Positions 16,150-57,369 of a DNA stretch of 64,000 nt are shown one piece after another. The stretch covers positions 16,198 through 80,197 of IMG/VR virus record IMGVR_UViG_3300045988_081432. One strand, given 5' to 3'. The translations under genes and the position numbers were made by a program. Within the stretch, counting starts at the first letter, position 1, and each line of letters begins with the position of its first letter. The DNA comes from a virus. The notes beneath the pieces were generated by a model. The model did no database searches, was not told the DNA's origin, and saw only the letters and a list, made by a program, of their open reading frames with translations.

Positions 16150-16779
16150 ATGGCGACTAATACACAGAGAATTGAAAACCTTGAAAAGGGTATGTCAGAA
16201 ATGCAGGGTACGCTTGGTGAGATTCTTGCTGCACTACGCGGTTTTTCTACTTCCTCTGCTCAAAATGAATCTGTTGCAGTTGTACACGAGGATAACCCAT
16301 CCGAAGAAGATTATACAGAACCAGAGGACGGAAAGAGCATTCGTGTTCGCAGTCTGTTTAATGGGACTCTTAATCTTACTTATGGGGATAGACGCTTTGT
16401 TACTTTTAATAAGTACGGCGACGAAAATCGTGTGCTATACCGTGACTTGATTCAAATTGTGAATATGAATCACAAGTTTGCGGAAGAAGGATACTTTGAA
16501 ATTGAGGATGCAAGTGCCGTTTATTTTCTTGGTATGACTTATGCTTATAATAATATTATTAAGTATAAAGACATCGAAAATATTTGCAGTTATTCCGATG
16601 ACAAAGTGAAGACTCTAATTGAGAACGCAAGTGACTATCAGAAAAGCCTAGTAGCAAATCGCGTTGCTCATCAAATTGTTGATGGTAAGAACGTAGACTA
16701 CAACAAGGTCAATTTGATTAATAAGTTGTGTTCCGTAGATATTAGTAAGCGCGCAGAGTCTATTCGCTCACTTGCTTAA
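16150..16779 (+). CDS. hypothetical head/connector protein
   Basis: 209-aa ORF in the co-directional late-gene array. Confidence 0.55.
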   Translation: MATNTQRIENLEKGMSEMQGTLGEILAALRGFSTSSAQNESVAVVHEDNPSEEDYTEPEDGKSIRVRSLFNGTLNLTYGDRRFVTFNKYGDENRVLYRDLIQIVNMNHKFAEEGYFEIEDASAVYFLGMTYAYNNIIKYKDIENICSYSDDKVKTLIENASDYQKSLVANRVAHQIVDGKNVDYNKVNLINKLCSVDISKRAESIRSLA

Positions 16780-41957: not shown

Positions 41958-42006
41958 TACGCTTGTTACTATTTCGTTGTTAAATTATTTATAAGGAGTG
42001 GATTTA

Positions 42007-44172
42007 ATGCCTAAATATTCTGAAAATTTGAATCTAAGACTAGATGACCCTGTTGCCGACGTATCACAGTTGTCAAGAAACTGGTTTGAGGCTAACTTCG
42101 GATATACCGATAGTAACATGACCAAAATTGATTCTGCCTATAAAGCAATGAAAGATGATATAGCTGATACTCCAACAAAATCTGGCGTTGGAGCTACTGG
42201 TGACTGGGATATCAATGTTACTGGCTCTGCCAATAGCGCTGTTCATGATGGAGTAGGAAACGACATCTCTTCTTCTTATATAACTGGTATATCAGTCGGA
42301 AACACCTCTATTACTTATACAAAAGGAGACGGAACCGACCAAGAAGAGACTATTAAAACAGATAAAACTTTGAGTATTAAAGGAATGGCTGCGGACGCAA
42401 AGGCAACGGGAGACTTGATTAAGAAATCTATCTATCCTACACTTGTGGTAAGTGTTACTGCTGGTTCATCTGTTACCGTTACGAAGGACTCTTATTCGTT
42501 CTCTGGTACTACTGACGACAAAGGCAAAGTAGAGTTTAACCTCCCCGCATTGGGACGATGGGATATTTCTGCAAGTCATAATGGTAGAACCGTAACCGAC
42601 TTCATTGATATTGATGTTCTTGCTAAAAGGTATACTATCAGTTTGGTATATTTTAACGCAAACTTAGTTGTTAGTGCTCCAACTAATGCCGTTGTGACTG
42701 CTATTTCTGGACACTATCAGTATACTAAGACCTCTGGTTCTGAAGGAAACGCTACTTTTGACATTAATCACGCTGGCAATTATACTGTTACAGCCACAAT
42801 GAATACCGCCACTTCCAATCCTGTGCCTGTAGATATTACAGAAGATGGTGGCAATTATAGCGCCGAGGCAGTATTCCGCACTATTACAGTAACTTGTAAC
42901 TCCGGTAGCTCTATTACAGTCCAAAAAGATGAAGAGGTCTTAACCGGTAATAGTACAGGCGTCCCTGTTAAATTTTATATTCCATCTACCGGCTCTTGGA
43001 CTGTAACAGCAACGCTGGGTGAAAATGTCGCCCAAGAAGAAATTAACGTAGTAGACTTTACCGACTATCCTATTACACTAAATTATGCTAGAATTTTTGG
43101 TGTAGTATGGGCTTATTCTAATTCTTCTACCGCGCTTGCTCGTGTTACAAAAGCTAATGACCCGAATAACTATGTAAATACAGATATTACTACCAGTCCC
43201 TCTCCCGCTGTAGGTACTGGTTCTGGTAGTAGTCCATTTGACGATTATATGCCGTGGAAGGGTATGGACGAATATAACATCGTTAACGGTGTTGTTGGGG
43301 CAAAATATGGCGAAGCTGGATTCTCTCGTAGTTCTAACGATGTAATGGTATATATTCCTGAATTTTGGTATAAGGTCGTAGACAATGGTAGCGCAAGCAA
43401 GCGTTACTTTTACATTGCAAATAAGGCAACAGATGGATTCGAGAAACATCCTGGTTCTGGGCGCTATGTAGGTCGTTATAATACGTCTAACAATCGTTCC
43501 GTATCTCCTTCGACGCCTTACATTAATATGAGTCGTGCATCTGCTCGTAATGGGGCAAGAGGCAAGGGAAACAAGTGGGCGCTATACGATTACGCTTCTT
43601 GGTGTGCTGTATGGTTACTTTATATAATAGAATATGCGGACTGGAACAGCCAGAGCAAAATTGGTAGAGGGTATGTAGATAACAACATCAATCTAATTGC
43701 TTCTGGCTATACTGACAGCATGACTTATCATACTGGACGTGTCTCTGGTTCTGATGGCTCTACCTCAGTGCAATATCGCCATATTGAGAACCCTTGGGGA
43801 AACGTCTACGAGTGGATTGATGGCATAAACTTTAGTGGTAATGGAGTATATATTTGTACTGATATTTCTAAATACGCCGATGATACCGTCACAAACTATA
43901 CTTATGCCGGCGCTAAAACTCAATCTAGCGGATACATCTCTATGACTGGATATTCTTCCACATATCCATGGAGTTTTTATCCAACTAGTACCAGTGGCAG
44001 CGAAACAACATATATCCCTGACTACTTTTACTCTGGCGGCGGTTGGCGTGTTTTGTGTGTTGGTGGTGATTGGGACGGTGGGTCGAGGGCCGGTCTGTTC
44101 TATTTCTATGCGGACGTTGGTTCTAGCAGCTCGAGCTCGAGCATCGGGGCGCGGCTCCTTTTCGTCCCCTAA
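42007..44172 (+). CDS. tail fibre/receptor-binding protein and DGR target, with a C-type-lectin/FGE-fold C-terminus
   Basis: ATG 42007 follows AAGGAG. It has three tandem ~60-aa Ig-like repeats. The C-terminal domain contains WALYDYASWCAVWLL, NPWGNVYEWIDG and GGGWRVLCVGGDWDGGSRAGLFYF...IGARLLF. The last 43 codons form the VR. Confidence 0.75.
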   Translation: MPKYSENLNLRLDDPVADVSQLSRNWFEANFGYTDSNMTKIDSAYKAMKDDIADTPTKSGVGATGDWDINVTGSANSAVHDGVGNDISSSYITGISVGNTSITYTKGDGTDQEETIKTDKTLSIKGMAADAKATGDLIKKSIYPTLVVSVTAGSSVTVTKDSYSFSGTTDDKGKVEFNLPALGRWDISASHNGRTVTDFIDIDVLAKRYTISLVYFNANLVVSAPTNAVVTAISGHYQYTKTSGSEGNATFDINHAGNYTVTATMNTATSNPVPVDITEDGGNYSAEAVFRTITVTCNSGSSITVQKDEEVLTGNSTGVPVKFYIPSTGSWTVTATLGENVAQEEINVVDFTDYPITLNYARIFGVVWAYSNSSTALARVTKANDPNNYVNTDITTSPSPAVGTGSGSSPFDDYMPWKGMDEYNIVNGVVGAKYGEAGFSRSSNDVMVYIPEFWYKVVDNGSASKRYFYIANKATDGFEKHPGSGRYVGRYNTSNNRSVSPSTPYINMSRASARNGARGKGNKWALYDYASWCAVWLLYIIEYADWNSQSKIGRGYVDNNINLIASGYTDSMTYHTGRVSGSDGSTSVQYRHIENPWGNVYEWIDGINFSGNGVYICTDISKYADDTVTNYTYAGAKTQSSGYISMTGYSSTYPWSFYPTSTSGSETTYIPDYFYSGGGWRVLCVGGDWDGGSRAGLFYFYADVGSSSSSSSIGARLLFVP
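44030..44157 (+). repeat. DGR variable region (VR)
   Basis: 128 nt that aligns with 44334-44461 at an offset of 304. There are 14 mismatches, and 13 of them sit opposite adenines in the downstream copy. Confidence 0.85.
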
Positions 44173-44180
44173 TGGGGGAC

Positions 44181-44203
44181 TGGGGGTCGCAACCCCCATT
44201 TTT
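44181..44203 (+). terminator. GC hairpin plus T-run immediately after the VR; a DGR target-recognition hairpin and/or terminator
   Basis: TGGGGGT-cgca-ACCCCCA forms a 7-bp stem with a 4-nt loop, followed by TTTTT. Confidence 0.6.
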
Positions 44204-44333
44204 AATGATTATTTAGACGCTTTCGCTTGTTTTATCTAAATGGCTCCAAGATAAAACAGACTTTTTATATTTTGGGATTGTTTGTGCTGCGCCCGATGTT
44301 CTACTAGGCATTCGACGCTAGTGGAAAACGCTG

Positions 44334-44461
44334 ACTCTGGCAGCGGTTGGCGTGTTTTGTATGTTGGTGGTGATTGGAACGGTGGGTCGAATGCCGGTCT
44401 GTTCTATTTCAATGCGAACAATGATTCTAGCAACTCGAACTCGAACATCGGGGCGCGGCTA
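44334..44461 (+). repeat. DGR template region (TR)
   Basis: This is the invariant donor copy. It contains 25 adenines by hand count and 8 AAY codons in the frame equivalent to the VR. It lies directly upstream of the RT. Confidence 0.85.
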
Positions 44462-44560
44462 CTTGTTTATTCTCCGTTTATTATCGCACAAACTCTCCCG
44501 CACCACTTGGTGAAAATATTGCCAATTAGGAAGCGAATTAGTAGGTTTATTCTCGAAAAT

Positions 44561-45748
44561 TTGCGCGGCAAACAAGGAGATGTTTTTATTCCTAAAAGAA
44601 AAGGTTATTTATATGAAAAAATGCTAAATAAAGAGCAAATTCGCTTTATCATTCAAGAAGCGGCAAGAGGGAAAACAAATAGAAGAGAAGTTCGCCGTGT
44701 ATTGAAAAATTTAGATTTATATGTAGACAAAACATACGAGATGCTGGTTACGGAGTCGTTTAAGCCATCTGTCCCGCATGAAAAAGAAATCTATGACGTA
44801 AGCAGTCAAAAGGTCAGAATTATCAAAACAGTACCATTTTGGCCTGATGGAATTATGCATTGGCTTATTGTTGATGCTCTAAAACCTATCTTTATGAAAG
44901 GTATGTATGATTGGTCTTGTGCTTCTATTCCCGGAAGAGGCGGGGTAAAAGTCCAAAAGAAACTGCAAAAATTTATTAGAACAAGCAAAAAGGCTAAATA
45001 TGCCGCCGAATTAGATGTCTCGAAATACTATCCGTCAATATCTACTGATACCCTAATAGAATTATTAAGAAGAAAAGTAAAAGATAAGAAAATGATTAAA
45101 ATAGTTCAGGATATAGCGGAATCTTGCGGTGGAGGTCTAGCGATAGGATACTATATTTGTCAATGGCTGGCGAACTTTTATCTGGAATCACTAGACCATT
45201 ATATTGCATCTCTGCCCGGTGTAGATTGTTACACCAGATATATGGATAATATAACATTGATAGGGGCAAACAAAAAACTGTTACATGAAGCAAGAAGAAA
45301 AATAGAAATGTTTTTAAAAGATAAATTGTCATTAAAACTAAAGGGAAATTGGCAAGTATATAGATTATCTTTTACAAGAAAAGTTTCCCAAAAACACCTT
45401 CTTCTAGACAAAAAACAACAAAGACTAAGAAAACCTAGGTTAGTATCTGCTGTTGGATGTAGATTCGCTAAGACATATACTATTGTAAGAAAGAGAAATT
45501 TTCTACGTTTAACCAGACAAAGCAGAAAAATTCAAAAGAAGCAAAACAAACATTTAAAAATATCTTTTAACATGGCGACGGGTTTTATAAGCAGAATCGC
45601 ACAATTAACAAGGTGCGACAGTCAATATGCCAAAGAAAAATACGTTTATTCAATAAACATGAAGCAATTAAAGGAGGTTATCAGAAATGAAAGTAAACGC
45701 AAGCTGTGCTCCAAACAAAAGCTTTCGTGTAGAGGAAATCCCGAATAA
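44561..45748 (+). CDS. DGR-type reverse transcriptase; start uncertain (TTG 44561, ATT 44588 or ATG 44621)
   Basis: The N-terminus is KRKGYLYEKM...AARGK. RT motifs present are SIPGRGG, AELDVSKYYPSI, GLAIGYYICQWLANFY (a variant of the DGR IGxxxSQ motif) and RYMDNITLIG (motif C reads YMDN rather than YxDD). The track ORF start at 44282 is read-through of the TR. Confidence 0.8.
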   Translation: MRGKQGDVFIPKRKGYLYEKMLNKEQIRFIIQEAARGKTNRREVRRVLKNLDLYVDKTYEMLVTESFKPSVPHEKEIYDVSSQKVRIIKTVPFWPDGIMHWLIVDALKPIFMKGMYDWSCASIPGRGGVKVQKKLQKFIRTSKKAKYAAELDVSKYYPSISTDTLIELLRRKVKDKKMIKIVQDIAESCGGGLAIGYYICQWLANFYLESLDHYIASLPGVDCYTRYMDNITLIGANKKLLHEARRKIEMFLKDKLSLKLKGNWQVYRLSFTRKVSQKHLLLDKKQQRLRKPRLVSAVGCRFAKTYTIVRKRNFLRLTRQSRKIQKKQNKHLKISFNMATGFISRIAQLTRCDSQYAKEKYVYSINMKQLKEVIRNESKRKLCSKQKLSCRGNPE

Positions 45749-46085
45749 GCCCGGGTTTGCTCTTGCGCGGTTTTTTGAAAATGTAGTGGAAAATGAAAAA
45801 AAGATTGATGACAAAACTATTAAGGAATATAACTATGATGAATATCATTTAATTATGCCTTATTATGACAATATAGAAAAAGATGTTTCTGCAAACATTG
45901 AGAATTTAATGACTCAAGCAAAATACGAAGAGGAAGAGAAAAATACAATTCCTAATCTCAAAGGCCAAATTAGTGAGCTAGAAAAACAAAAATCTAAACT
46001 TGAAGAGCAGACAACGGATATGCAACTTGCTCTATGTGATGTATATGAGCAAATGTTATCTGTTACTTCTACCACAAAGGAGTGA
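45687..46085 (+). CDS. acidic coiled-coil protein, function unknown
   Basis: Strong AAAGGAGG RBS 8 nt before ATG 45687. It overlaps the RT 3' end by 62 nt. Confidence 0.55.
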   Translation: MKVNASCAPNKSFRVEEIPNKPGFALARFFENVVENEKKIDDKTIKEYNYDEYHLIMPYYDNIEKDVSANIENLMTQAKYEEEEKNTIPNLKGQISELEKQKSKLEEQTTDMQLALCDVYEQMLSVTSTTKE

Positions 46086-46091
46086 TTTGTA

Positions 46092-46214
46092 ATGCCTAAA
46101 ATTTATGCAGAACTCATTCGTAAAGGATTCAAAACTATTGACGATGTTCCTGTTTCTATCAGGGAAGAAGTAGAAAAGATTCTCGCAGAGAGCACTCATT
46201 GTGCGCTCTCTTGA
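46092..46214 (+). CDS. small conserved-looking phage protein of 40 aa, paralogue of the next ORF (not in the track)
   Basis: Translation is MPKIYAELIRKGFKTIDDVPVSIREEVEKILAESTHCALS. It shares an xIYAxLIxKGxKTIxxVPxxIREEV pattern with 46256..46348. Confidence 0.45.
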   Translation: MPKIYAELIRKGFKTIDDVPVSIREEVEKILAESTHCALS

Positions 46215-46255: not shown

Positions 46256-46348
46256 ATGGCTATTATTTATGCTACTCTAATTGTTAAAGGTAAAAAGACT
46301 ATTAACCAAGTCCCCGCAATCATTCGTGAACAGGTAAAGAAATCCTAA
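46256..46348 (+). CDS. small phage protein of 30 aa, paralogue of the previous ORF (not in the track)
   Basis: Translation is MAIIYATLIVKGKKTINQVPAIIREQVKKS. An AAAGGAGA RBS lies upstream. Confidence 0.45.
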   Translation: MAIIYATLIVKGKKTINQVPAIIREQVKKS

Positions 46349-54171: not shown

Positions 54172-57100
54172 TTAGATATTTACAAGAACTTCATAGTTAG
54201 TTATGTGCCAATAATCTTTCTGTTTTTCAAGATGCTTACAGAGTATTACATCACCAACTTGAAATTCTTCATGGTAATTTTTAGAAGTAATAGTGTAATT
54301 AGATTGCTTACCACTACCAATACTCTGCGCCGTAATCTGCCTTGCCCATACTCTACCACTAGCCTTAGACTTTAGTGCTTTGACATCAAGGATATATAGC
54401 TTTGGTCTGTCTTCTTGCTTACCTGTTGCAATATCAACATAACCCATGTATTCTTTCTGAATTTCTGCTTTTTCTTTAATAGTCATAGGTTTGATACCTA
54501 ATGACATAATCAAAGTTTCACATTCGTTCAAAATTGCCATATTATCTAGTTGAGAATAGGATTTAGATTCTTTGCCAGCCTTAGTAGTAGAAACAGAATG
54601 TCTCTCTACAATCGCCCTTACGACATCACTGTTAGCTAGTTTTTCTTTTTTCAAAGTCTTTGCTGTACCAAACATATCATACATCTTAACAAGACGTAGA
54701 AGTTCTTTAGCATTGCCAAATTCATCAAAGAAATCTAGCTTAATAAGGATATCTAATTGACGGGAATTTACAGATGTCTTTCCGTAAATATCTCGTAGTA
54801 AATCTACAAAGGAATCATAATGGTTATCTCGTAGACTATATAAATCATCAGCACAAGATTGGTTCATAAATTTAACAGAACCAATGCCTTTGTAAATTGA
54901 ATTAGATTCTTTATCAACAAAATATTCTGCTTTTGAATACCTAAACTTTGGTTTCTTGATTTTTACTTTGATAGATTTTGCATATTCAGACGCCTCATTT
55001 GTCTTGTCTTCGTCATCAACAAAAATATTTAAGCAACAACAAATATATTCAAGAGGATAATAGTATCTTAACCAAGCACATTCATAAGATATAGACGTAT
55101 AACTAACTGCATGAACCAGAGAAAAACTATAACGAGTGGCATTTAGAACGCAACCAAGAAAAATATCCATAATCTCATCAGATTTTTCTTGAGAAAGTCC
55201 CAATCTAACCTTTCCGTTTTCCTCAAATCTCTGCTTGATAATTGGCAACTGTTCTTTTGTGCCAAGTTTTTTACCAATAATTTTTCTTAATTTGTCCGCT
55301 TCTAGGAATGTATACCCACAGAATTTCATTACGAACTCCATAATAGGTTCCTGTAGAATAGGATAACCCATTGTAGAAGCAAGTAAATCATCAATTTCCT
55401 TAACGCCACTATGATACCCAATGCCACTTACAGCATTATCGTAAACATCTTTTCCGCAAGGGCGAATTAAACCAGACACAAAAGTGATAATATCAAACTT
55501 TGTAATGGACGGATAATCATGGTGAATCCTACTCCAAGATGCGGGACTAAGAATTTTCTTGATAGTTTGTTCTCCATAATTACTATTCAACTGAAAAATA
55601 AGAGATGTATCATTCTTAATTGATTCAAAAACTTTATCATCATCGAAAGTAAGATTCTTTGGAGAAATACGTTCAATGCCAGCGACATCACAGCATTTAT
55701 TAATAACGCCAACATTATCAAGAGCGAGTTCATCCATCTTAACCCAATTCAGAGAATCAAGTTCTTTCATATTCAAGACGCAAACAGGGTATTCGTCACC
55801 AGCAAGGGTACAGATGCCAAGCTCTGATTCAATATCTCTATCTGCAACAAGAACACCAGAAGGATGGCTACCAAGAGAGGTGACAGTGCCTTGTACTAAA
55901 TCAACAATCTCAAATAGTTTTGGATATTTCTTACGCCAAGAGTCGTCAATTGTCGTTACCTTGTTTTCGCCTTCCGTTGCTTCATAAACCGCTTTTGCGA
56001 TTTCATCAACAATTTCAAGCGGCATATCAAGGCCGCGTCCAATATCACGAATAGCACCACGCAAAGCAATCGTGTTAAATGTAATAATCTCAGAAGTCTT
56101 AATATTAGGTAAATCCAAATGGTCTTTTAGCATCCAACGCTTAGTCGCATCACGGTCTTTTGAATACTGGTCTGTATCAATATCGGGAAGACTATACTTA
56201 GATTCGTCCATAAAGCGCCAAAAATGAAAGCCATATTTAAGAGGGTTAACTTCTGTTACACCAAGAGAATAAAGTGCAAGACTAGAGGCAGCAGACCCAC
56301 GAGCAGGGCCAGTATAGAATCCGTGGTCTTTTTCCCATCTGGAAATATAGTCTGCAAGGATAATATAGTCAACGGAATCAATGGCTTTGAATGTCTTAAA
56401 TTCATGATTAAGGCGGTTTCTTACGTCATCTTCTGAAAAACCTTCGCTCACAATAGAACCAACAGCCTGTGGGTTGAATAGCTTATCTCGCAGAATCTTT
56501 TCAGAATCATCATAAATCTTTGGAAATTTAAATGACGTATCAAGGGTAAATGGCTGTACCATATCAGCCATAACATTTGTGTTCTGAATCGCTTCAAGAT
56601 AAGCAGATTCAGGAAGTGCGTCTTGAATATGATATGCTTCTACTAGTTCATCATAGCTCTTCCACGTTAAATCCCACTGTGCTTCGTCATCATTAAATAC
56701 AACCCTCTTTCCAGCTTGGAGAACTTTTCTTGCCTTTTCTTGTAATTTATTCGCACAGTGGAAGTCTGTACCCGTAATTAATGGAACATTAATCTGCCTA
56801 CTTAGTTCGTAAAGATATTGGTTGTAAATCTTTTGCTTTTCTACATTATGATGTTGAATCTCTAAAAAACAACGGCCTTTGTTTTTGGCAAGAAATTTGA
56901 TAAATCTCTCTTTTAATTCTTCGTTTCCTTTACAAAGAACCGAGGCCACACACGCAGTACACACAATAATGTTATTACTTGTTCCAAGCAATTCTGCAAA
57001 AGTAATACGAGGAACGTAATAAAAATGTCCATCTTCACGATTATATGCACGACTCGACATCTTATTCAGTTCAAAAAATCCGTCTTTGTTCTTTGCAATC

Positions 57101-57369
57101 AAAACGCAGTGATAATTGTCACGGATTTTTTCGTTAAGGCTCTCTGTAACATAAAACTCACAGGCGTGAATATATTTTAGCCCAGCAGCTTCAATAGCAT
57201 CTTTTTTATGTTTCCACTCGTAAAAGCATCCATGCTCACTAATTGCAAGCGCGGTCATACCACATTCTTTTGCTAGATTTGCATACTGCTTAAATGTAGC
57301 AATACTATCAATACCAGCATTAGGATTTGACAGCATGGTGTGGCAATGATATACAGTATAATTTGACAT
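54172..57369 (-). CDS. dnaE: DNA polymerase III alpha subunit (DnaE-type, with an N-terminal PHP domain)
   Basis: 1065 aa. The PHP start is YHCHTMLSN. The palm motif is GPARGSAASSLALYSLGVTEVNPLKYGFHFWRFM. Confidence 0.85.
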   Translation of the reverse strand: MSNYTVYHCHTMLSNPNAGIDSIATFKQYANLAKECGMTALAISEHGCFYEWKHKKDAIEAAGLKYIHACEFYVTESLNEKIRDNYHCVLIAKNKDGFFELNKMSSRAYNREDGHFYYVPRITFAELLGTSNNIIVCTACVASVLCKGNEELKERFIKFLAKNKGRCFLEIQHHNVEKQKIYNQYLYELSRQINVPLITGTDFHCANKLQEKARKVLQAGKRVVFNDDEAQWDLTWKSYDELVEAYHIQDALPESAYLEAIQNTNVMADMVQPFTLDTSFKFPKIYDDSEKILRDKLFNPQAVGSIVSEGFSEDDVRNRLNHEFKTFKAIDSVDYIILADYISRWEKDHGFYTGPARGSAASSLALYSLGVTEVNPLKYGFHFWRFMDESKYSLPDIDTDQYSKDRDATKRWMLKDHLDLPNIKTSEIITFNTIALRGAIRDIGRGLDMPLEIVDEIAKAVYEATEGENKVTTIDDSWRKKYPKLFEIVDLVQGTVTSLGSHPSGVLVADRDIESELGICTLAGDEYPVCVLNMKELDSLNWVKMDELALDNVGVINKCCDVAGIERISPKNLTFDDDKVFESIKNDTSLIFQLNSNYGEQTIKKILSPASWSRIHHDYPSITKFDIITFVSGLIRPCGKDVYDNAVSGIGYHSGVKEIDDLLASTMGYPILQEPIMEFVMKFCGYTFLEADKLRKIIGKKLGTKEQLPIIKQRFEENGKVRLGLSQEKSDEIMDIFLGCVLNATRYSFSLVHAVSYTSISYECAWLRYYYPLEYICCCLNIFVDDEDKTNEASEYAKSIKVKIKKPKFRYSKAEYFVDKESNSIYKGIGSVKFMNQSCADDLYSLRDNHYDSFVDLLRDIYGKTSVNSRQLDILIKLDFFDEFGNAKELLRLVKMYDMFGTAKTLKKEKLANSDVVRAIVERHSVSTTKAGKESKSYSQLDNMAILNECETLIMSLGIKPMTIKEKAEIQKEYMGYVDIATGKQEDRPKLYILDVKALKSKASGRVWARQITAQSIGSGKQSNYTITSKNYHEEFQVGDVILCKHLEKQKDYWHITNYEVLVNI

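Follow-up and report, generated by a model that had tools for sequence, protein, structure and literature searches.

Can a diversity-generating retroelement (DGR) still work when its reverse transcriptase (RT) carries an asparagine in place of the second aspartate of the YxDD box? This question is raised by a DGR cassette in a 64,000-nucleotide (nt) stretch of viral DNA (IMG/VR record IMGVR_UViG_3300045988_081432, positions 16,198 to 80,197), hereafter called the window, to which all coordinates refer; all features of the cassette lie on the plus strand. An initial annotation made from the sequence alone had left two readings side by side: a recently inactivated, drifting cassette, or an unusual DGR that works without the accessory protein Avd and with a non-canonical active site. 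The sequence facts on which it rested all proved correct. The comparative data presented here support the latter reading and speak against the former. The locus is very probably a functional DGR of a tailed phage of gut Oscillospiraceae, arranged in the order tail gene (with the variable region, VR, at its 3' end), template region (TR) and RT, without Avd, and its RT belongs to a widespread lineage of gut phages that naturally carries YxDN. In such a cassette the TR and a structured 3' spacer of about 110 nt would be transcribed, and the RT would copy the TR into complementary DNA (cDNA) with misincorporation at adenines. The cDNA would then replace the VR, guided by a GC-rich initiation of mutagenic homing (IMH) sequence and by conserved GC hairpins after the VR, with the outcome that the receptor-binding tip of the tail protein is rewritten.

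The YMDN motif is shared by a lineage of DGR reverse transcriptases

The RT gene (44561..45748) encodes 395 amino acids (aa) when counted from the in-frame TTG at 44561, with the stop codon at 45748. The open reading frame (ORF) matched the Pfam family RVT_1 (E = 1.4e-9), and the DGR RT of a Bordetella phage (bRT, 8ub7) was the top solved-structure match by sequence (E = 9e-13) as well as the top fold match of the AlphaFold (AF2) model (mean predicted local distance difference test score, pLDDT, 77). HMMER alignment to bRT placed RYMDN opposite RYMDD and IGYYICQ opposite IGSLTSQ. Motif C covers Y227-M-D229-N230-I-T232 (45239..45256), and the codons TAT ATG GAT AAT at 45239-45250, which are in the RT frame, encode Y227, M228, D229 and N230, as had been read in the initial annotation. 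The asparagine codon differs from GAT by the single base at 45248, so that YMDN lies one G-to-A transition away from YMDD. The canonical YxDD box is a feature of RTs generally and not specific for DGRs; this RT has YMDN in its place. Motif A reads AELD (codons E150-L151-D152, 45008..45016); D152 is the catalytic aspartate, and E150 co-varies with N230. Motif B was also confirmed as IGYYICQ (45143..45163); it matches the DGR RT signature [I/V/L]GxxxSQ (PMC7826257) at I, G and Q and has Cys instead of Ser.

In order to see how far these motifs extend, a search of 5.8 billion proteins was used, which yielded 790 relatives, and the motifs were read in the best 120 of them (52-97% identity). All 120 closest homologues carried [Y/H]MDN, and all except one IS variant carried IG..[I/L/V/M][C/N]Q. 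The recurrence of YMDN and IGxxxCQ in a clade, a possibility raised in the initial annotation, was thus found. L001 and L123, the two independent assemblies nearest to the window with RTs 97% identical to its own, likewise have Asn at the position equivalent to N230. The picture was extended by searching 50%-identity cluster representatives exhaustively with HMMER: among the best 150 matches 142 were scorable, of which 22 had Asn (DN) and 120 Asp (DD) at the second position, and the DN representatives extended to about 31% identity to the window RT. In a crude neighbour-joining tree the DN sequences fell into at least 4-5 separate groups. Translated loci, 87 from IMG/VR and 35 from bacterial genomes, gave the same DN/DD picture, with DN RTs down to 42% identity in Oscillospiraceae genomes, cultured isolates included.

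Related cassettes with YMDD, likewise anticipated, were found beside the DN clade in the form of a sister clade at 47-48% RT identity with the motif B IGFFICQ. Because this sister clade also has Cys in motif B, the Cys is a lineage feature independent of the Asn. Moreover, Cys, Asn and Ser alternate at the motif B Ser position within the lineage, YMDD members included. On these alignments, IGxxxCQ is a conservative clade variant.

The variable region carries the footprint of ongoing adenine mutagenesis

The target gene (41998..44172) encodes a 724-aa phage tail protein that matched PHROG 5302 ("tail protein", E = 1.5e-78). Its C-terminus gave a weak match to the Thermus DGR variable protein TaqVP (5VF4, E = 0.21), in which VR was aligned to VR. 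The VR occupies the last ~45 codons (44030..44160) and is a 131-nt direct repeat of the TR with 89% identity. It is the sole copy of the TR in the window, where no additional or remote VR was found. The TR, including its 3' end of the IMH* type, covers 44334..44468 and ends about 95 nt upstream of the RT. Alignment of the VR with TR positions 44334-44464 showed 14 mismatches, 13 of them at TR adenines, the TR having 25 A in 131 nt (p = 5e-9).

One of the adenine mismatches, 44157/44461 (VR C, TR A), is found as a fixed A-to-C difference in almost every related cassette and corresponds to the boundary between IMH and IMH*, not to a mutagenesis event. The lone mismatch outside adenines (1/14), to which the initial annotation had drawn attention, is T44392 in the TR versus G44088 in the VR. 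The TR position is T also in L001 and L123, therefore the T-to-G change arose in the VR. It is ordinary background, explained either by infrequent misincorporation at U or by a point mutation acquired later. For purified bRT-Avd, misincorporation amounts to about 1.2% at U, 0.5% at C and 3% at G (PMC7826257), and at least one difference other than A-to-N occurs in 23% of the DGRs of a curated set (PMC5758913). One to three non-A differences between TR and VR are common in DN and DD cassettes alike.

The TR/VR pair was then located in every locus having enough upstream sequence. In 33 distinct DN cassettes, 419 of the 440 mismatches (95.2%) were at TR adenines, adenine making up 22.6% of the TR bases of the DN clade; in 22 YMDD relatives the corresponding count was 282/296 (95.3%). 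The proportion of TR adenines that were substituted was 43% in DN cassettes and 48% in YMDD relatives, and non-A sites differed at 0.63% and 0.58%, respectively. Turnover of the VR was most directly visible in four groups of DN contigs, independent metagenome contigs with 100% identical TRs and different VRs, in which the VR-variable columns lay at a TR adenine in 22/25, 19/19, 19/20 and 20/20 cases. The window, L001 and L123 behaved similarly: their TRs are near-identical and each VR has its own pattern of A-site substitutions. The ratio of nonsynonymous to synonymous substitution rates (dN/dS) of the RT among these three was about 0.10. DN RTs at 42-46% identity in Oscillospiraceae metagenome-assembled genomes also adjoin A-mutagenised VRs. 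The locus shows TR/VR differences almost exclusively at TR adenines, an RT of the DGR clade beside the TR, and VR turnover among related genomes, features by which a DGR is recognised. As far as genome comparison can tell, these results showed that selection acts on the DN lineage and that this lineage is associated with VR turnover that is ongoing and A-specific.

The spectrum of the A-site substitutions was also recorded in loci L001-L087. In DN cassettes (n = 419) it comprised 59% A-to-G, 30% A-to-T and 11% A-to-C, and in YMDD relatives (n = 282) 42% A-to-G, 45% A-to-T and 13% A-to-C (chi-square p = 3e-5). Either the enzyme or selection acting on the tail-protein tip could be behind this difference.

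Cis-acting elements and the spacer RNA are conserved

The homology between TR and VR stops at the IMH-type 3' end of the VR (44146..44163), which consists of the GC-rich run GGGGCGCGGC followed by TCCTTTTC; the counterpart in the TR is TACTTGTT (IMH*). Directly after the VR lies hairpin 1 (44164..44180, stem GTCCCCT/GGGGGAC), found in the same place in DN and DD relatives; the stop codon TAA of the tail gene (44170-44172) sits at its loop. It is followed by hairpin 2 (44181..44198), which has a 7-bp GC-rich stem (TGGGGGT/ACCCCCA), a 4-nt loop and then five T residues. Hairpin 2 is kept throughout the DN and DD clades, and its loop-closing pair switches between T-A and C-G, which is a compensatory change. 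The Bordetella DGR requires a GC stem of 7-10 bp with a 4-nt loop at 4-34 bp after the VR, the loop consensus being GRNA (PMC3240598). The window thus has an IMH, an IMH* and a downstream GC hairpin with a 4-nt loop, but the loop (44188-44191) is invariantly CGCA in this lineage, differing from the published phage DGR consensus. Hairpin 2 is a candidate for the target-recognition hairpin or cruciform, and also for a terminator.

The spacer of about 110 nt between TR and RT is strongly conserved and contains a structured RNA domain (44462..44576) of five helices. These are P1 (44462-44466 with 44572-44576), the P2 hairpin (44501-44504 with 44509-44512), P3 (44519-44523 with 44567-44571), P4 (44532-44538 with 44559-44565) and P5 (44544-44545 with 44553-44554). 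The RNAalifold consensus missed P3, which was added by eye from compensatory changes and checked by pair counts. In the five-helix model 98.2% of cells were paired over 31 distinct sequences, with compensatory changes at 9 of the 22 pairs. None of 500 shuffles matched this, and slid partners were only 30-49% paired. In the window itself, helix 4 has compensatory changes of its own by which the structure is preserved.

In the outermost helix, P1, the CUUGU at the extreme 3' end of the TR pairs with ACAAG just before the Shine-Dalgarno (SD) sequence of the RT. For bRT, the TR 3' end and a segment of the spacer form a template:primer duplex for self-priming (10.1101/2023.10.23.563531). By analogy, P1 may correspond to the template:primer duplex that TR and Sp form in Bordetella; initiation would then take place next to A44461, the TR base that is fixed as C in nearly all related VRs.

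The translation start of the RT lies at the end of this domain. In the window, L001 and L123, an ATT (I-P-K-R), at 44588 of the window, stands where the clade usually has ATG (M-P-K-R). An SD sequence, AAGGAG, is present at 44574-44579, and the ATT lies 8 nt after it, which is an ideal spacing. The in-frame TTG at 44561 has no SD sequence and lies within the helices of the spacer RNA. Translation of the RT may be deliberately weak. An out-of-frame ATG at 44580 starts an ORF of 15 codons. Furthermore, TR and spacer are open in the RT frame (44282-45748), and gene callers report a 488-aa "RT" with a translated TR (e.g., P0001); versions of 454-499 aa occur in other relatives. The TR-extended 488-aa call is probably an annotation artefact.

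The Asn is coupled to other changes in the active site

Residues coupled to the second position of motif C were counted over the 50%-identity representatives. Two positions upstream of the catalytic Asp of motif A, Glu was found in 15 DN and 0 DD sequences, Lys in 0 DN and 95 DD, and Gln in 5 DN and 18 DD. Two positions after the Asn/Asp, Thr was present in 14/22 DN sequences, and Val, Ile or Leu in 112/120 DD sequences. The combinations Lys with Asn and Glu with Asp were never seen in this set, which suggests that the side chains at motif A -2 and at the second position of motif C are neighbours with a constrained joint charge.

In the cryo-electron microscopy structure of bRT, Mg2+ lies 2.2 and 2.3 Å from D138 and D215 (10.1101/2023.10.23.563531). 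These residues correspond to D152 and D229 of the window RT, both invariant in the clade, and not to the second Asp of motif C. We infer that D152 and D229, the universal pair of metal ligands, carry catalysis and that the change from K/D/V to E/N/T is a coupled remodelling of the floor of the active site in the palm, possibly relocating a carboxylate to E150. The loss of a motif C carboxylate is not without parallel in palm polymerases. The L polymerases of the Mononegavirales, non-segmented negative-strand RNA viruses, naturally have GDN and not GDD in motif C, with the first Asp kept. This GDN is a precedent by analogy, since these enzymes are RNA-dependent RNA polymerases of eukaryotic viruses whose homology to RTs is limited to the palm fold.

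A more far-reaching idea is put forward here as a tentative one. The RT lineage might polymerise with two of the three catalytic Asp by means of a Lys/Asp/Val to Glu/Asn/Thr switch that moves a carboxylate from motif C to the motif A strand, and the rewired site might alter metal use, speed or misincorporation spectrum. The system would be free of Avd, and a self-folding spacer RNA would present the 3' end of the TR for priming.

The cassette has no Avd, and the acidic neighbour is probably not its substitute

Between the stop of the VR gene (44172) and the TR start (44334) there are 161 nt without an ORF, in agreement with the initial annotation, which had seen no Avd ORF at this place. This gap measures 160-240 nt throughout the clade, too short for an Avd gene. 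Eight small basic ORFs and two others across the 64-kb window gave no Pfam match to Avd (PF05635) at E up to 1. The cassette lacks the small basic four-helix-bundle gene that is typical of Avd-dependent DGRs of the BPP-1 type, although a highly divergent Avd might be encoded elsewhere in the host genome. No accessory family was detected in the cassette, which has the core of Architecture A: a TR-RT unit beside its target gene that lacks avd, HRDC, MSL and CH1 genes. The TR-RT architecture without an accessory gene represents 29% of curated DGRs, and one whole lineage has no avd (PMC5758913). Two of the four features called atypical in the initial annotation, the absence of Avd (29%) and a single non-A difference (23%), are ordinary and documented in that survey.

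The RT is followed by a conserved gene for a 132-aa protein (45687..46085), which overlaps the RT 3' end and is acidic, as had been stated (isoelectric point, pI, 4.7). It is conceivable, but unlikely, that this protein is a new accessory subunit replacing Avd. Of 87 related loci, about 80 have its gene after the RT and overlapping the RT stop codon, and this holds for both the DN and the DD sister clade. It had no match in Pfam and NCBIfam scans, and its model gave no significant fold match in the PDB, so that it has no recognisable family. However, Avd proteins are basic with a mean pI of 9.5 (PMC5758913), and the model of the 132-aa protein (pLDDT 88) shows a four-stranded sheet and one long helix of 68 residues and not a four-helix bundle. 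A homologue is present in a lysis-proximal module of the phage contig L125, where the available upstream sequence of 880 nt contains no RT. In L123 (5001-5378) the protein is only 55% identical whereas the RT is 97% identical, with a sharp mosaic boundary at the RT 3' end; this shows that recombination uncouples the gene from the RT. Its position, between the tail fibre gene and the small XkdX-like genes and lysin, would fit a virion or assembly gene. The 132-aa ORF was therefore rejected as a substitute for Avd; it is probably a neighbour from the tail/lysis module that lies beside TR-RT and not a DGR accessory factor. The homologues differ by a 7-residue indel, that is one heptad, in the helix.

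Alternatives to a functional YxDN cassette

Two further explanations concern the RT itself. We consider it very unlikely that the DN protein is impaired in catalysis and serves as an RNA-binding scaffold, with the cDNA being provided in trans by an RT of the host or a co-resident element. Such a role would account for the loss of a normally invariant residue, and DGR components are known to act in trans on remote targets (PMC5758913). A search with a hidden Markov model of DGR RTs, however, found a single RT in the window. In addition, the clade shows little or no variation at the first Asp of motif C, the Asp of motif A and the signature residues I, G and Q, as expected of an enzyme and not of a scaffold. 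A-specific turnover was seen in dozens of phage lineages with many host genera, and each of these would need a compatible helper.

Even less probable is the recent inactivation that the initial annotation had considered, in which the RT was killed by a G-to-A transition from YMDD to YMDN and decay first shows in the non-A mismatch. The single transition separating YMDN from YMDD, the one mismatch outside adenines, an RT without the usual ATG and the truly collapsed cassettes of a related subgroup could all be taken in its favour. Yet Asn is present in 120/120 homologues and in distant DN groups, the RT evolves at a dN/dS of 0.10, non-A mismatches are as rare as in the YMDD relatives, and the cis elements are all intact. 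Close relatives have near-identical TRs and different A-site VR patterns. That the VR patterns are older than the D-to-N change is untenable given the groups with identical TRs and different VRs. Decay is refuted because identical TRs occur with VRs differing at A sites, the Asn is conserved deep in the clade, dN/dS is about 0.10 and the A-specificity is like that of YMDD relatives. Finally, an assembly or sequencing error at 45248 that produced a false Asn codon, suggested by the single-base difference from GAT, can be dismissed, since L001 and L123, which are independent assemblies, and each of the 120 closest homologues have the Asn as well.

Several points nevertheless weigh against a functional YxDN cassette or limit what can be concluded about it. 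The evidence is comparative throughout, and the VR differences are post-selection products, which tell that mutagenic homing happened but do not gauge the efficiency of the RT. The activity of a DN enzyme is not trivial, since engineered substitution of the second Asp inactivates HIV-1 RT. The ATT in place of the usual ATG of the RT in the window and its two closest relatives may mean low expression. The neighbour-joining tree is too crude for counting independent D/N transitions. The separate VR/TR pair is gone from the DN subgroup L011-L016 and L116, an instance of decay within the lineage.

The cassettes of this subgroup (L011, 1562-4000; L012-L016; and L116, Flavonifractor sp. An100) encode an RT 60% identical to that of the window with RYMDNIT intact, and contain a single repeat copy. 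The tail ORF continues without a break into an AAC-rich, TR-like stretch whose end is the IMH*-type GGCTACTTGTTT; the RT comes immediately afterwards. This looks like a recombination between VR and TR that deleted the intervening spacer and left a collapsed, dead-end DGR.

Genomic context and hosts

The window is a segment of a tailed phage genome with an ORF of tape-measure size, baseplate and tail genes, the target tail protein, TR-RT, two XkdX-like mini-genes and an endolysin with GH25 and peptidoglycan-binding domains; the replication module is on the opposite strand. Relatives are phages or prophages of Oscillospiraceae, and Flavonifractor, Dysosmobacter, Agathobaculum, Yanshouia, Hominicoprocola and Faecousia are among the host genera. 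A nucleotide search of GenBank phages gave only weak matches, to unannotated faecal phage contigs. A protein search of the same phages found no close RT, the best being that of Lactobacillus phage LBR48 with 34% identity; the RTs of LBR48 and of Butyrivibrio phage Arawn have the canonical K...DD arrangement.

The mini-genes at 46092-46214 (40 aa) and 46256-46348 (30 aa) both matched phrog_1382 (E = 1e-12 and 7e-15, respectively) and appear to be a local tandem duplication between the DGR and the endolysin gene. In the closest relative, L001 (13044-13467), the annotation places intein (Intein_splicing, PT-HINT) and LAGLIDADG homing-endonuclease domains within the gene for DNA polymerase III alpha. 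The 1065-aa ORF of the window (about 54172-57369, minus strand) is likely a homologue of this gene.

Relation to known systems and significance of the YxDN lineage

One of the closest known systems is the DGR of Bordetella phage BPP-1, with bRT, Avd and the TR/Sp RNA (8ub7). As in BPP-1, a receptor-binding protein of the phage tail appears to be diversified through a C-terminal VR. The TR-to-VR differences are A-specific, the IMH is GC-rich, a GC hairpin whose loop has 4 nt lies after the VR, a structured RNA follows the TR, and bRT is the top match in both sequence and fold. Unlike BPP-1, the window has no Avd, and target, TR and RT follow each other with nothing between them. Its RT has YMDN for YMDD, Glu for Lys at motif A -2 and Cys for Ser in motif B, the hairpin loop is CGCA and not GRNA, and the spacer RNA is not alignable to Sp. 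With Architecture A and the Avd-less "Lineage 3" DGRs (Wu et al., 2018, PMC5758913) the cassette shares the order target-TR-RT, the absence of an accessory gene, a single target and the association with phages. Also close is the YMDD sister clade of Oscillospiraceae phage DGRs (L062-L087, L098-L108), which has the same cassette order, hairpins, spacer RNA and downstream 132-aa gene, but keeps the canonical K...YMDD.V active-site triplet.

Full-text literature searches for YMDN/YxDN-type motifs together with reverse transcriptase or DGR returned nothing relevant, and the DGR survey of Wu et al. (2018, PMC5758913) does not mention a YxDN active site in its main text. A natural, deep and apparently active YxDN lineage of DGR RTs in phages and prophages of Oscillospiraceae, with a coupled Glu/Thr signature and a conserved spacer RNA, is thus apparently new; we found no description of it in the literature searched.

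YxDD is treated as a hallmark of RTs, and its second Asp is routinely mutated for dead controls; here a widespread natural Asn lineage leaves a full footprint of adenine mutagenesis. Motif-based filters will discard YxDN DGRs or mislabel them as defective. The lineage is a compact, Avd-independent diversifier of two components, RT and RNA, which makes it attractive for the DGR-based directed-evolution tools in development. Several cultured Oscillospiraceae isolates carry such prophages, so direct testing is possible; candidates are Flavonifractor porci P01024, Agathobaculum ammoniilyticum, Yanshouia hominis BX1, Dysosmobacter segnis BX15 and Hominicoprocola fusiformis CLA-AA-H269. For the RT family as a whole, the YxDN lineage is a natural experiment on the role of the third carboxylate in catalysis and fidelity.

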